A stretch of 64,000 nt of DNA from an uncultured Clostridia bacterium. GTDB lineage: Bacteria > Bacillota > Clostridia > TANB77 > CAG-508. The notes below the pieces were generated by a model. The model made no database searches and was not told the origin of the DNA. It saw only the letters and a list, made by a program, of their open reading frames with translations. Of the stretch, positions 4,379 through 50,104 are shown piece after piece; the stretch's first letter is position 1; every line of letters begins with the position of its first letter. The position numbers were made by a program, and so were the translations under genes. The DNA is taken from positions 20,556-84,555 of the forward strand of contig CANQCV010000001.1 in assembly GCA_947591045.1 (NCBI GenBank). Reading direction: 5' to 3'.

Positions 4379-5860
4379 TTATTTTACATAAAGCACGACA
4401 CGAAAGCTGACGTAAATAAAGTAACGCGTGATTATATCGGAACCGTGAGCACGCACAACAGGGAAAGTGGCACCATTAATTTCGAAGCCACCACCACGCA
4501 GAACAACGAACATCTGGTTGTCATGAATGTTGTGTCCTGTTGTCCATTCCCACATATTTCCTGCCATATCATATATATTATACAACTTAAAATCATCACT
4601 TGAACCTGTTGCAAGTTCTATATAATTTGTGCCAGTATTTTGTTCTACTTGTCCTTTGGTATATGTTGTAGCTATTGTCCATTTATTATCAATTATTGTA
4701 TGTTTTGCATATAACCCATTTATTTTTCCATAGTTTGGTGCTGTATTACCATAATAATTTCCCCATGATGATGAATCTTTTATATTTTTTCTTCCATCAA
4801 ATATATTTTTACATATATGGTTCCATGCTTGACTATCCACTAAGTAACTTCTTACTCCTACCTCATCACCATCCTTATACATATTTTCTGCTACTAATTT
4901 CGAGTTTGGTTGTGTTATATAATTCCATGCTTGTACCCCTTGTTTACTTACTGGTTTTAATTTTTTTATAGATTCTGTATCTCCATAACTTCCTCTTACT
5001 TTTGCATAATCATTTGCCCATTCTTTTGTAAAAGTATGACTCGCACCTTCTATTGTATAATATCCTAAATTACTATCTTTAATAGAAAATGTTGCATCAC
5101 TTGGAATTCCTGCCTCATATCTTGCTATATAAAATCCTCCATTTTTTTCTATACTTTCAGTTGCTACTTCTATTTGGTCTTCATTTACCCATTTTTCTGT
5201 TGGTAATGTTGGAGTGTTTCCATTATTTTTATATGTGGCATCTAACTTTGTTTTATCTTCTGCTGTATAGTTATCTCTCCAACCATACCCTTGTCCTTTT
5301 TCTCCCTCTGGTGCATTTTCATCACTACTATTATCTCCTTTTGTCTTATATTCGATATTAATACTCCAACTTTCTTTCATTACCGCATGTTTGGCATTTT
5401 CGTATTGCTCCTTTGTACATGGTATCCACACAAATTGATTTCCTTCTTTATCTTCTATTACTATTCCATCATTTACACTTGTTCCTAAATCTGTCCTTAC
5501 AAAAAAGCCCCTTGGTACTACTATTTTATTTCCATATACATCTTCTGCATCTACTGTGCTTTCTAGTACCACATTTGAACTTCCTCCTCCTAATGTATCT
5601 ACTAATGGTAGCCCATGTGGTCCTTTTCCTGTTTCTTTCATCATTTCTTCTAGCATTGTATTTAAGCCCTCTACTTCTTTTTTGCTACTTTCTTCATATG
5701 CATCTCTTGCTTGTTCTGCCTTTTTTATTAAGCCATTTTCTCCTGCTACCATATTTATACTTACTGTGGCTAGTATTATTAATACGATTATGGTTACAAC
5801 AATGGCTATTAGTGTTATTCCCCTTTCTTTTATTTCTGTCATTTGTTTTCTCCCTTTCAT
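4379..5860 (-). CDS. prepilin-like N-terminal anchor fused to an FGE-sulfatase (SUMF1/C-type-lectin-fold) domain protein, paralog 1
   Basis: N-terminus KERGITLIAIVVTIIVLIILATVSI is a prepilin-type hydrophobic segment. The C-terminus carries FGE-family motifs DMAGNMWEWTT, LRGGGF and SFRVVLY. The gene is preceded by AAAGGAGG. Confidence 0.75.
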   Translation of the reverse strand: MKGRKQMTEIKERGITLIAIVVTIIVLIILATVSINMVAGENGLIKKAEQARDAYEESSKKEVEGLNTMLEEMMKETGKGPHGLPLVDTLGGGSSNVVLESTVDAEDVYGNKIVVPRGFFVRTDLGTSVNDGIVIEDKEGNQFVWIPCTKEQYENAKHAVMKESWSINIEYKTKGDNSSDENAPEGEKGQGYGWRDNYTAEDKTKLDATYKNNGNTPTLPTEKWVNEDQIEVATESIEKNGGFYIARYEAGIPSDATFSIKDSNLGYYTIEGASHTFTKEWANDYAKVRGSYGDTESIKKLKPVSKQGVQAWNYITQPNSKLVAENMYKDGDEVGVRSYLVDSQAWNHICKNIFDGRKNIKDSSSWGNYYGNTAPNYGKINGLYAKHTIIDNKWTIATTYTKGQVEQNTGTNYIELATGSSDDFKLYNIYDMAGNMWEWTTGHNIHDNQMFVVLRGGGFEINGATFPVVRAHGSDIITRYFIYVSFRVVLYVK

Positions 5861-5882
5861 TTTTACTTTTCCTCCTTTATCT

Positions 5883-5908
5883 CGGGCGACCGATGGTCAG
5901 CCCCTACA
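5883..5908. repeat. GC-rich palindromic element copy A (CGGGCGACCGATGGTCAGCCCCTACA)
   Basis: 8-bp stem GGGCGACC/GGTC(A)GCCC with one bulged base. On the minus strand it lies directly upstream of the SD of the paralog-1 gene. Confidence 0.8.
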
Positions 5909-5938
5909 TTTAATTTTTTTATTTTTTTCCCTTTTTTT

Positions 5939-5964
5939 CGGGCGACCGATGGTCTGCCCCTACA
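5939..5964. repeat. GC-rich palindromic element copy B (CGGGCGACCGATGGTCTGCCCCTACA)
   Basis: Same element 56 nt from copy A, with one bulged base. Confidence 0.8.
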
Positions 5965-6060
5965 ATAGTTATTTTCTTTTACAATGTAGCCAATAATATT
6001 TTTTGAATAGAAAAAACATTATAATTACATTACACAATTCGTACATTTATAAAAATGCAC

Positions 6061-6102
6061 GCAAAAAAGACAGTCCATTTATTTTCACATAAATAGTCTG
6101 TC
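6061..6102 (-). terminator. intrinsic terminator / attenuator between the leader ORF and pilin-FGE paralog 1
   Basis: Minus-strand hairpin GACAGACTATTTAT-GTGAAA-ATAAATGGACTGTC followed by TTTTTTG. By hand pairing it has 12 Watson-Crick pairs, 1 GU pair and 1 mismatch. Confidence 0.55.
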
Positions 6103-6140
6103 TTTATATATCACAAACAAAGCGATTTTTTCGCTTAACT

Positions 6141-6215
6141 CTATTTTACTAAATTGTAGCTCTCTCTCTCTCTCTCTCTCTCTCTTACAGCCTTAAGGCT
6201 TTTACAGTTTTTCAT
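6141..6215 (-). CDS. leader micro-ORF 1 (24 codons) containing the (AG)13 tract
   Basis: SD AAAGGAG lies 10 nt before ATG 6215. The peptide is MKNCKSLKAVRERERERESYNLVK, ending at stop TAG 6143..6141. It is homologous to leader ORF 2 up to the repeat. Confidence 0.45.
   Translation of the reverse strand: MKNCKSLKAVRERERERESYNLVK
6160..6185. repeat. perfect dinucleotide microsatellite (CT)13 on plus, (AG)13 on minus
   Basis: Counted by hand at 26 nt. It lies inside leader ORF 1. Confidence 0.95.
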
Positions 6216-6244
6216 TTGTACTTTTCTCCTTTAAATTTATATTA

Positions 6245-6284
6245 CGGGCGACCAATGGTCGCCCCTGCATCACATATTTGTGAT
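6245..6284. repeat. GC-rich palindromic element copy C (perfect stem) plus adjacent ATCACA-N4-TGTGAT palindrome
   Basis: CGGGCGACCAATGGTCGCCCCTGCA at 6245..6269, followed by ATCACATATTTGTGAT at 6269..6284. Confidence 0.8.
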
Positions 6285-6339
6285 TGGTAACCCATTGTTT
6301 GTATTTTTCTATTTTTTTATTATTTCTATAATTATATAT

Positions 6340-6370
6340 TTATATTATAATTATACTTATTATTTGTCAA
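6340..6370 (-). promoter_or_regulatory. possible sigma-A promoter for leader 1
   Basis: Minus-strand TTGACA (6370..6365) followed by TATAAT at a 15-nt spacer, or TAATAT at 17 nt. The spacing is imperfect. Confidence 0.3.
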
Positions 6371-48271: not shown

Positions 48272-49756
48272 TTATTGATTTATATAAAGCACGACACGGA
48301 ACCCAATGCCGATGTAGGTGTCAGTCACCGCATTTGTGCCACTGCGAGAGGAAACAGGATAGTAGGTGCCGTCGACGTTAAAGCCACCCCCACGAAGAAC
48401 CGCGTACTTCGTACCGGTTGCTGTGTTTGCATCTGTTGTGCTATGGCGACCTGTCTCTGTTGTCCACTCCCACATATTTCCCGCCATATCATATATATTC
48501 TTTAGCATAAAGTTGCTTACTGAACCTGTTGCTAATTCTACTATTTTTGATAATGTATGTGTTGTTGTGTTATAACTACTACCATTTGTATAATCTGCTG
48601 AATTATATTTTAGTCTTTCTTCTTTGTCTGTTAATTCTTCTATTCCTAATTTTGGTTGTCCCTTTTTATATTTATTTGCTACTACCCATGCTGTTGCTTT
48701 ACTGTCAGCTTTTTTGGTTGACCATACATGTTGGGCATATAATACATCTTCTGCTAATTGTGTTGAATTATTAGTATAATTTCCATAGTTACTACTTTCT
48801 GATGCTATATTTGTGTATTTTTCACCTAACCAATCCACCGTTCTGTCCCATGCCCATCCATCTATTAACTGACTTGTTACATCATAGCTACTCTCTGCTC
48901 CACTATACATATTGCTTGATACTGTTACTGCATTTGTTTGGCTTATATAATTCCATGCTTGCATGCCTTGCTTACTTACTGGTTTTAATTTTATTCCATT
49001 TTCTTGCGATACATTTTTTGATTTATTTCCATTACTAGCATCTGCCGTATAATATGTCATTTTTTCTTTATTACTTTCATTATTTACAGAAAATGATGCA
49101 TTATCTGGTATTCCTGCCTCATATCTTCCTACATAAAATCCCCCATTATTTTTTACACTTTCTGCATTTCCTCCTTCTTCCGTCCAATCTGTATATTGTC
49201 TATATGACTGTGTTTTCCATGGGTTAGTACTATCTCCACTATCTGTTGTTGATCCTTTTGTATCGTCTACATTTGGAGTTTTATACACATGTTTCTTATA
49301 TTGCTCCTCTGTACATGGTACCCATACAAATTGGTTACCTTGTTTATCTTCTATTACTATTCCGTCATTTACTTTTGTTCCTAAATCTGTCCTTACAAAA
49401 AAGCCCCTTGGCACTACTATTCTATTTCCATATACATCTTCCGCATCTACTGTACTTTCTAATACTACATTTGAACTTCCTCCACCCAATGTATCTACTA
49501 ATGGTAGCCCATGTGGTCCTACTCCTGTTTCTTTCATCATTTCTTCTAGCATTGTATTTAGACCTTCTACTTCTTTTTTACTGCTTTCTTCATATGCATC
49601 TCTTGCTTGCTCTGCTTTTTTTATCAAGCCATTTTCTCCTACTACCATATTTATACTTACTGTGGCTAGTATTATTAGCACAATTATGGTTACAACAAGG
49701 GCAATTAGCGTTATTCCTCTTTCTTTTCTTTCTGTCATTTGTTTTCTTCCTTTCAT
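48272..49756 (-). CDS. prepilin-like N-terminal anchor fused to an FGE-sulfatase (C-type-lectin-fold) domain protein, paralog 2
   Basis: Start taken at MKGRKQMTERKERGITLIALVV (SD AAAGGAGG). The track start 49834 runs through the leader. The C-terminal motifs are DMAGNMWEWTT, LRGGGF and IGFRVVLY. The first ~150 aa are nearly identical to paralog 1. Confidence 0.75.
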   Translation of the reverse strand: MKGRKQMTERKERGITLIALVVTIIVLIILATVSINMVVGENGLIKKAEQARDAYEESSKKEVEGLNTMLEEMMKETGVGPHGLPLVDTLGGGSSNVVLESTVDAEDVYGNRIVVPRGFFVRTDLGTKVNDGIVIEDKQGNQFVWVPCTEEQYKKHVYKTPNVDDTKGSTTDSGDSTNPWKTQSYRQYTDWTEEGGNAESVKNNGGFYVGRYEAGIPDNASFSVNNESNKEKMTYYTADASNGNKSKNVSQENGIKLKPVSKQGMQAWNYISQTNAVTVSSNMYSGAESSYDVTSQLIDGWAWDRTVDWLGEKYTNIASESSNYGNYTNNSTQLAEDVLYAQHVWSTKKADSKATAWVVANKYKKGQPKLGIEELTDKEERLKYNSADYTNGSSYNTTTHTLSKIVELATGSVSNFMLKNIYDMAGNMWEWTTETGRHSTTDANTATGTKYAVLRGGGFNVDGTYYPVSSRSGTNAVTDTYIGIGFRVVLYINQ

Positions 49757-49787: not shown

Positions 49788-49811
49788 GCAAAAAATACAG
49801 GCTGTTTATTT

Positions 49812-49829
<18 letters not shown>
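49788..49829 (-). terminator. intrinsic terminator / attenuator overlapping the end of leader ORF 2
   Basis: Minus-strand ACAGACTATTTAT-GTAAAA-ATAAACAGCCTGT followed by ATTTTTTG. 11 of 13 positions pair. Confidence 0.5.
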
Positions 49830-49946
<117 letters not shown>

Positions 49947-49967
49947 TTGTAATATTCTCCTTTACCT

Positions 49968-50034
49968 CGGGCGACCGATGGTCGCCCCTACATATATTTT
50001 TGCAATGGTCGTCCCTACATCACTTATTTGTGAT
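49968..50034. repeat. GC-rich palindromic element copy D (perfect), a degenerate half copy E, and an ATCAC-N-GTGAT palindrome
   Basis: CGGGCGACCGATGGTCGCCCCTACA at 49968..49992, CAATGGTCGTCCCTACA at 50003..50019, and ATCACTTATTTGTGAT at 50019..50034. Confidence 0.8.
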
Positions 50035-50075: not shown

Positions 50076-50104
50076 AGTATAGCTATATTTTTTCTTTTAG
50101 TCAA
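50076..50104 (-). promoter_or_regulatory. sigma-A type promoter for leader 2
   Basis: Minus-strand TTGACT, a 17-nt spacer, then TATACT. Confidence 0.45.

Follow-up and report, generated by a model that had tools for sequence, protein, structure and literature searches.

Can the length of a dinucleotide repeat in a short leader decide whether the gene behind it is transcribed? The question is raised by a 64,000-nucleotide (nt) stretch from an uncultured Clostridia bacterium (assembly GCA_947591045.1, contig CANQCV010000001.1, positions 20,556 to 84,555 of the forward strand; hereafter the window, in which positions are counted from its first letter). Two paralogous genes of the window are each preceded by a leader open reading frame (ORF) that runs through an (AG)n repeat, and by a predicted intrinsic terminator between leader and gene. 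The repeat number n is 13 at copy 1 and 15 at copy 2. A first-pass annotation of the letters had argued for a tract of switching length, with the two loci captured in opposite states. That argument is strengthened here by five leader families, by values of n in all three reading frames, by a pair of otherwise identical loci that differ in n (L093 and L089) and by a precedent in Streptococcus gallolyticus. The feature is real, and we consider it likely to be a phase-variable leader-ORF attenuator of the pil1 kind known from that species.

Two leaders of one design

All relevant features of the two copies are on the minus strand. Those of copy 1 are listed in the order of transcription.

6342..6370, minus strand: promoter-like site TTGACA, 17 nt, TAATAT (consensus scan)
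6246..6265, minus strand: GC-rich hairpin GGGGCGACCATTGGTCGCCC in the 5' untranslated region (UTR), directly upstream of the leader Shine-Dalgarno (SD) sequence; -16.6 kcal/mol
6226..6232, minus strand: leader SD AAAGGAG, 10 nt before ATG 6215
6141..6215, minus strand: leader ORF in its current frame, 24 amino acids, MKNCKSLKAVRERERERESYNLVK, from ATG 6215 to stop TAG 6143..6141; predicted OFF state
6160..6185, minus strand: (AG)13 tract within the leader ORF ((CT)13 on the plus strand); predicted slippage site
6085..6159, minus strand: hidden long frame LQFSKIELSEKIALFVIYKDRLFM, stop TGA 6087..6085 in the terminator loop; reached if n is a multiple of 3
6120..6136, minus strand: small hairpin AAGCGAAAAAATCGCTT, conserved, with a U-rich stretch after it; -5.8 kcal/mol
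6063..6102, minus strand: predicted intrinsic terminator, hairpin 6102..6069 plus T6 6068..6063; -12.7 kcal/mol, or -15.9 kcal/mol with flanking A/U pairs
5884..6046, minus strand: spacer module of about 160 nt with GC hairpins at 5960..5940 and 5904..5884
4379..5860, minus strand: paralog 1 gene, 493 amino acids, SD 5878..5870, start 5860

The corresponding features of copy 2 are as follows.

50076..50104, minus strand: promoter-like site TTGACT, 17 nt, TATACT (consensus scan)
49969..49988, minus strand: GC hairpin upstream of the leader SD 49963..49957, with a half copy at 50018..50003
49812..49946, minus strand: leader ORF in the long frame, 44 amino acids, from ATG 49946 to a stop TAA in the terminator loop; predicted ON state
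49887..49916, minus strand: (AG)15 tract
49790..49829, minus strand: predicted terminator, hairpin 49829..49797 plus T6 49795..49790; -7.0 kcal/mol
48272..49756, minus strand: paralog 2 gene, 494 amino acids

The layout that the first-pass annotation had described for copy 1 was reproduced at the same positions: an (AG)13 tract, an SD, ATG and first ten codons shared with copy 2, a 24-codon ORF ending at TAG, and about 38 nt from that stop to the terminator hairpin and its T-run. The copy 1 5' UTR is about 120 nt long. Ten codons, MKNCKSLKAV, precede the repeat, and both tracts begin at leader codon 11. Codons 1-10 are alike in the two copies except for a synonymous TGT/TGC difference, and the SD AAAGGAG with its 10-nt spacing is found in both. 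The current frame of copy 1 stops 38 nt before the hairpin core. The frame that copy 2 uses is open in copy 1 as well, as had been noted, and its TGA falls at the equivalent place, in the hairpin loop, with L/V, K/R and K/E differences between the peptides. Measured to the extended hairpin, the short frames of the window leaders end 35 and 43 nt upstream, and the long frame has its stop in the loop. None of the post-repeat frames fuses to the gene ORF. None of the three extends past the terminator hairpin, and an SD and ATG of its own precede the gene ORF.

The two copies are homologous from about the promoter-like site onward, through the 5' UTR, the leader and the terminator and on into the gene. 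Upstream of this they have unrelated neighbours: copy 1 a KAP NTPase gene, copy 2 a two-component system. Promoter, leader, terminator and gene therefore travel as one unit.

It could be argued that the difference between n = 13 and n = 15 is neutral or artefactual, in a hypervariable repeat without function. Dinucleotide tracts are error-prone in sequencing and assembly, and several of the contigs used for comparison have low coverage. However, in the window, whose G+C content is 28.6%, non-AT dinucleotide runs of at least five units are confined to three contingency-like sites in the 64 kb, two of which are the homologous leader positions of copies 1 and 2. The cassette is also conserved, with two different repeat units, before many surface-protein genes. 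An origin in noise is extremely improbable on these grounds.

A proposed switch and its precedent

Repeat-length control through a leader peptide has been demonstrated by experiment for the pil1 and pil3 loci of S. gallolyticus, in which a leader ORF with a (GCAGA)n repeat precedes a terminator of the stem-loop kind (Danne et al. 2014; PMC3894217). At pil1, short leader peptides end at least 28 nt before the hairpin and accompany low expression, whereas long ones end within or beyond it and accompany high expression. Deletion of the terminator locks expression high, loss of the ATG and ribosome-binding site or the addition of stops abolishes heterogeneity, and the repeat number varies among isolates (PMC3894217). 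Such mutants established that transcription is raised by long leader peptides that extend to the terminator (PMC3894217).

Because the window loci carry every sequence-level feature of the pil1 design, copy 2 is probably read through and copy 1 probably terminated. The proposed unit consists, in order, of a promoter, a 5' UTR, a translated short leader ORF with (AG)n, an intrinsic terminator and a surface-protein gene. From pil1 we infer that the leader would be translated, that the hairpin would terminate transcription and that the long frame would correspond to read-through. Slipped-strand mispairing would change n by whole 2-nt units and so move the ribosome among the three frames that follow the tract. 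When n is a multiple of 3, as in copy 2, the ribosome would read 24 further codons and stop in the loop of the terminator hairpin. Trailing RNA polymerase, it would cover the 5' arm, block the hairpin and allow read-through into the gene (ON). When n is 13, as in copy 1, or 14, the ribosome would halt 35-43 nt before the hairpin, which would then form and terminate the majority of transcripts at the T-run (OFF or low). A locus could change state through slippage by a single unit.

The small hairpin at 6136..6120, with its U-rich tail, might be a pause site for RNA polymerase that lets the ribosome catch up, which is speculation. It does not overlap the terminator arm, and no codon runs were found in the leader beyond the repeat itself. 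A riboswitch or a trp-type attenuator was also considered and is disfavoured, as no conserved antiterminator was found; a weak alternative pairing of 7 bp is present in one comparison leader only (L080). Searches of the whole window with the Rfam 15 covariance models returned only tRNAs at the gathering score, and the best matches in the leader regions were at chance level, with E >= 0.5 and scores far under that cut-off.

The design recurs in unrelated leaders

Loci for comparison were obtained by way of the downstream protein, a degenerate leader pattern and the leader peptides. Five leader types were distinguished, with (AG)n or (AC)n repeat units and post-repeat sequences that cannot be aligned with one another.

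Window type, (AG)n: window copies 1 and 2, L085, L094, L095
MQKTRNAKSLKAV-(AG)n: L086-L093
MANARSLEAL-(AC)n: L047 (three copies), L056
MKNRESLEAV-(AC)5: L080, where it fronts a different protein
MQKPESLARV-(AC)11: L022

All five have an SD and ATG, about 10-13 codons and then the repeat. In each type exactly one post-repeat frame is open, for 17-33 codons, and stops within a hairpin that is followed by a T-run; the two remaining frames run into stops 21-74 nt short of it. The extended hairpins have energies of -15.6 to -22.1 kcal/mol. When the intervening region was shuffled, the joint P across the families was about 3e-4. The segment before the repeat is common to AG- and AC-type leaders, with the consensus [AG]AAGCCTTNNGGCTGTA (…AGCCTTNNGGCTGTA) and the peptide S-L-[KE]-A-[VL].

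This recurrence bears on the possibility that tract length acts on RNA or DNA without translation, for example through length-dependent antiterminator pairing or spacing, in which case the frames would be incidental. The terminator arms of AC-type leaders read CACACA/UGUGUG, so an (AC)n RNA could be a competitor for pairing with the 3' arm, and (AG)n could pair weakly with the U-run. Such pairing would leave unexplained why the SD and ATG are conserved in every leader type, and an effect of the tract on RNA only is disfavoured by the single frame that reaches the hairpin in five unrelated leaders. Furthermore, AG-type terminators have no CU-rich arm, and L055 retains a long ORF though most of its repeat is lost. 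The S. gallolyticus effect is translation-dependent (PMC3894217). We therefore consider an effect of the tract without translation quite unlikely, and a leader ORF whose translated length controls the terminator remains the preferred explanation.

L055 (1078..1190) deserves description in its own right. Only (AC)4 is left of its decayed repeat. The ORF, MIANARGSMRTHTIYIKEKGNIRTHRTYTF, is held in the long frame and has its stop within the terminator hairpin. Judged from its sequence, it looks like a locked version that can no longer switch.

The extent of the cassette was assessed with several searches. The 44-amino-acid leader, used as a query, found 28 small ORFs in gut metagenomes, and the DNA of several was retrieved; against protein cluster representatives it matched one cluster only, which was uninformative. 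The degenerate leader pattern gave a single leader in metagenome contigs (L080) and none in viral contigs. Among 60 upstream regions of distant gene homologues, leaders with a simple sequence repeat (SSR) were present only in L047, L056 and, in decayed form, L055. The cassette is therefore lineage-specific and not a property of the whole protein family.

Leader and gene units also occur in tandem, three of them within 6.5 kb in L047, and tandem paralogs are found in L082/L083. In L086-L092, which come from different samples, the promoter, leader and terminator are identical, and the genes diverge after the pilin-like N-terminus, some of them frameshifted. Recombination at the conserved 5' module could have exchanged cassettes in this way, or the metagenome assemblies could be chimeric. 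Contigs from short-read metagenomes tend to break at or in leaders: the gene starts at 33 in L081, and L084 begins inside the terminator. The cassette is therefore systematically under-represented in assemblies.

Tract length varies and the alternative frame stays open

The first-pass annotation had proposed a check, namely whether n varies modulo 3 among related leaders, and it does: window-type leaders have n = 9, 11, 12, 13 and 15, covering all three frames. The long frame is used at n = 9 and 12 (P0121-P0126, L085, L094) and at n = 15 (copy 2); the short frames are used at n = 13 (copy 1, the SY frame) and n = 11 (L095, the third frame, 'ATI*'). One locus was seen at two lengths. L093 (ERZ922505) carries (AG)15 and L089 (ERZ930493) carries (AG)16, which corresponds to long versus short frame; outside the tract the two show no difference across about 330 nt on the upstream side and about 280 nt on the downstream side. 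In the AC type, long-frame peptides were found with (HT)3, (HT)4 and (HT)5.

The hidden long frame is intact in every OFF-state copy that was sampled independently of that frame (window copy 1, L095, L086, L047a-c, L056a, L080 and L022). Across five window-type leaders, the 75 post-repeat nt contain 11 variable columns, no indels and no new stops. Accumulated stops or indels, or a repeat invariant in populations, had been named beforehand as findings that would speak against a switch; the hidden frames of window-type leaders contain neither an indel nor a new stop, and the repeat number varies. Conservation of the hidden frame had been claimed as well, with reference to conservative amino-acid changes, which is a weak argument. 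The claim holds for the openness and length of the frame; for the peptide itself no sign of selection was found, as the 11 variable columns fall 4/3/4 on codon positions 1/2/3 and the majority of changes are non-synonymous. This distribution was rejected as evidence for a functional peptide. Because the substitutions are spread in this way, and because the post-repeat peptides of the other leader types are unrelated to that of the window type, what is kept would be the openness of the frame and its constant length up to the hairpin, not a particular peptide. On sequence comparison, selection appears to maintain a frame that can be translated to that point.

These same data speak to another explanation, in which the long frame encodes a small protein (44 amino acids in copy 2) that is functional and phase-variable in its own right, with a transcript that simply ends at the hairpin and with separate expression of the gene. 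The window-type tail IALFVIY is hydrophobic and recurs in metagenomic ORFs, and the spacer of about 200 nt in copy 1 could hide an unrecognised promoter. However, the five types have post-repeat peptides with no relation in sequence or in character (the AC type reads DSILEERDNIRTHRTYT), and synonymous changes are not in excess among the 4/3/4 substitutions. In copy 2, L085 and L084 there are only about 15 nt between the T-run and the gene SD, and no promoter-like site was found there. The stop lies within the hairpin in all cases, which a free-standing small gene would not need. A separate small protein is very unlikely in light of these observations.

Leaders that had been found independently of frame were in a short frame in 8/9 cases, which fits a family that is mostly OFF. 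Within the AC type, all eight leaders sampled in this way use the same short frame (n = 5, 8, 11, 11, 14, 14 and so on, each 2 mod 3). At these values the ORF ends at the codon pair just after the tract ([RK]-stop), as seen in L047 (20, 2127, 4642), L056 (2562), L080 and L022 (~259). The other short frame was never seen among the AC-type leaders found, and long-frame versions are present in databases.

Several points weigh against the phase-variable attenuator proposed here. The bias of the AC type toward n = 2 mod 3 is not predicted by a simple two-state model. Many database leaders were found through called ORFs, which biases the sample toward long frames, and some comparison contigs have only 3-5x coverage, so that single-unit differences could include assembly error. 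Taken alone, the architecture of any one family is not rare by chance (per-family shuffle P = 0.06-0.46). Significance is reached only when the families are combined, and these may have a common origin. The ON and OFF assignments of the two window copies are made purely by analogy, and the weak terminator of copy 2 (-7.0 kcal/mol) is possibly leaky in any frame. Finally, the model needs tight coupling of ribosome and polymerase, which is not general in Firmicutes.

Terminators, spacer and GC hairpins

Three changes in the 3' arm make the terminator of copy 2 weaker than that of copy 1. Among window-type leaders, all changes in the hairpin are in the 3' arm; the 5' arm, which lies within the long ORF, is invariant. 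Copy 2, the long-frame copy, may also be leaky (-7.0 versus -12.7 kcal/mol).

The frame might alternatively act through another step, either by exposure of the RNA to Rho or RNase after an early stop, with effects on polarity or stability, or by long-frame translation that unfolds the region of the gene SD. The weak hairpin of copy 2 would be compatible with this, as would the stable GC hairpins just upstream of the SDs in copy 1, which resemble stability or processing elements. Neither step would account for a hairpin and T-run that are kept in every leader type, with the long-frame stop always inside. These routes seem unlikely as the main explanation, and they could act beside control of the terminator by leader translation. 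Translational coupling was rejected for copy 1, where a distance of about 225 nt between leader stop and gene start is too great for it.

Copy 1 has about 200 nt between terminator and gene, compared with about 30 nt from T-run to gene start in copy 2, and two extra GC hairpins lie in this stretch (5960..5940 and 5904..5884), in agreement with the first-pass annotation. Its suggestion that this stretch may give terminator-independent expression found no support: a consensus scan of the approximately 200-nt spacer found no promoter-like site, and the stretch proved to be a recurring module. Homologues of the module follow the same terminator in L094 and lie between the tandem paralogs in L082/L083, where the spacer begins directly after the stop codon of the upstream gene. 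The module ends in a GC hairpin just 5' of the SD, and this hairpin is present twice in the copy 1 spacer. The spacer GC hairpins are not terminators, because they have no T-run.

The GC-rich hairpin, GGGGC(N)GACCATYGGTCGCCC, has energies of -12.7 to -16.6 kcal/mol and stands just 5' of an SD, the leader's or the gene's, in 3/4 window copies. Its sites are 6246..6265, 5940..5960, 5884..5904 and 49969..49988 in the window (with the half copy at 50003..50018), about 640..665 in L095 and about 385..408 in L082. No exact matches were found in other loci, with diverged or truncated versions only in L082, L094 and L095, and there was no Rfam match. In L095 the hairpin keeps its pairing through a U·G change, which suggests action at the RNA level. 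A role in stability or processing would be a guess.

The genes behind the leaders

The two paralogs are 94% identical over their first 150 residues and about 30% identical over the remainder. Each has a pilin-like hydrophobic N-terminal helix, RGITLIALVVTIIVLIILA, with Ala in place of the Glu5 of true prepilins (motif G-[FI]-[TS]-L-[IV]-E). Pilin N-terminal models of Pfam and NCBIfam matched neither paralog, and a related protein in L086 gave a faint GspG match (E = 0.009). PF03781 (FGE-sulfatase) was matched by paralog 2 with 37.5 bits (gathering cut-off 23.3) and by paralog 1 with only 16.6 bits. In an AlphaFold model of paralog 2 (pLDDT 86), two long N-terminal helices are joined to a body that resembles C-type lectins (CLec) and formylglycine-generating enzyme (FGE). 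The best PDB matches of this model were TaqVP (5vf4), Mtd (1yu4) and TvpA (2y3c), with modest TM-scores of 0.3-0.4. The products are predicted to be variable surface proteins with a C-type-lectin/FGE-like fold. Homologues of the genes number in the thousands, with several paralogs per genome, in metagenome-assembled genomes of uncultured Clostridia from rabbit, human and mouse gut. If each paralog switches independently, several of them per genome would likely give a stochastic, combinatorial display of variable lectin-fold surface proteins.

A third repeat at a glycosyltransferase gene

The third dinucleotide site of the window lies at the 5' end of a gene for a membrane glycosyltransferase of the GT87 family.

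34015..34059, minus strand: SD and ATG 34059, MKQQNLGAV, then (CA)9 at 34032..34015; gene at 32768..33928

The current frame of (CA)9 stops after 18 amino acids. Another frame enters the GT87-family ORF and completes its first transmembrane helix, and n = 8 or 11 would fuse the start to that ORF. Its sequence marks the site as an intragenic SSR switch of the classical kind, currently out of frame. The gene is part of a polysaccharide locus and adjoins a DegT aminotransferase gene. The context before its repeat, CTTNNGGCTGTA, is common to the leader cassettes.

Wider reading and significance

A broader interpretation would see a portable, clade-wide cassette for phase variation, fused either to a terminator (transcriptional control) or to a gene (translational control), perhaps with three frame states (off, low and on) or with a pre-repeat element that tunes slippage or translation. 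We regard this as tentative, a possibility well short of probable. There is room for it because the pre-repeat segment is common to the AG, AC and GT87 repeats and because of the 8/8 frame bias of the AC type. If true, combinatorial surface variation across a large group of uncultured Clostridia of the gut would be driven mainly by this cassette, much as it is by invertible promoters in Bacteroides.

In the literature searched, pil1/pil3 was the only described switch that acts by repeat length through leader-peptide-dependent attenuation, and no such switch was described for this clade. A dinucleotide version, independently built and present on many paralogs with at least five leader types in human, mouse and rabbit gut, would make a general strategy of what had been one isolated case. 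A sequence rule for annotation is provided as well: an SD and ATG, about 10 codons, a repeat, and one frame that ends inside a terminator. The repeat length would predict which members of the lectin-fold surface-protein family a strain expresses, which bears on interactions with host and phage in organisms that are not yet culturable. In this way a large system of contingency genes in uncultured gut Clostridia would be exposed.

Comparison with known systems

Classical intragenic SSR contingency loci, a class reviewed in PMC3894217, include Neisseria opa (CTCTT), Haemophilus lic1 (CAAT) and the CT/AG tracts of Helicobacter. As in those loci, slippage near a 5' end would shift the frame and switch a surface component. 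In the intragenic loci, however, the repeat is in the structural gene and the switch is translational, whereas here it sits in a leader ORF that is distinct from the gene and has a stop of its own, and a terminator lies between repeat and gene.

In Clostridioides difficile, Emerson et al. are said to have described in 2009 that the phase-variable surface protein CwpV is controlled by RecV-dependent site-specific inversion, which sets a terminator in the 5' leader of cwpV. There, as in the window, a heritable DNA state would decide whether a terminator forms in the 5' leader of a surface-protein gene. The cwpV switch is a DNA inversion without leader translation; here it would be repeat slippage that is read by the ribosome.

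In leader-peptide attenuators such as trp (summarised in PMC3894217) and pyrBI, the position of the translating ribosome decides whether a terminator forms. The leaders described here resemble pyrBI in that the ribosome would mask the terminator directly. They are unlike the trp type in that neither regulatory codon runs nor a conserved antiterminator were found, and the input would be a heritable change of frame, not a metabolite.

The gene products invite comparison with the variable proteins of diversity-generating retroelements (DGRs). TaqVP, Mtd and TvpA are, like the predicted products of the window genes, ligand-binding CLec/FGE-like scaffolds for variable surface display. No DGR was seen in the window, and none was searched for; variation here would consist of a repertoire of paralogs combined with on/off switching.

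The closest parallel is pil1. Both systems have a promoter, an SD-ATG leader with a simple repeat, a terminator and a gene for a surface structure, and in both the repeat number sets the frame. The repeat unit of the window leaders, too, has a length that is not a multiple of 3, and the repeat number varies among relatives, including changes that go out of frame. The systems differ in the unit, which is GCAGA with 13-22 units in pil1 and an AG or AC dinucleotide with 5-16 units here, and in the outcome of slippage: both out-of-frame states are long in pil1, and one of three frames is long here. Since neither the repeat unit nor the leader peptide shows sequence similarity to those of pil1, the window leaders are analogues and not homologues. 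The pil1 system is associated with one or two sortase-pilus operons, whereas the cassette described here is portable, is carried by numerous paralogs, dispersed or in tandem, of uncultured gut Clostridia with low G+C, and fronts proteins of a CLec/FGE fold with a pilin-like N-terminus as well as other kinds of surface protein.

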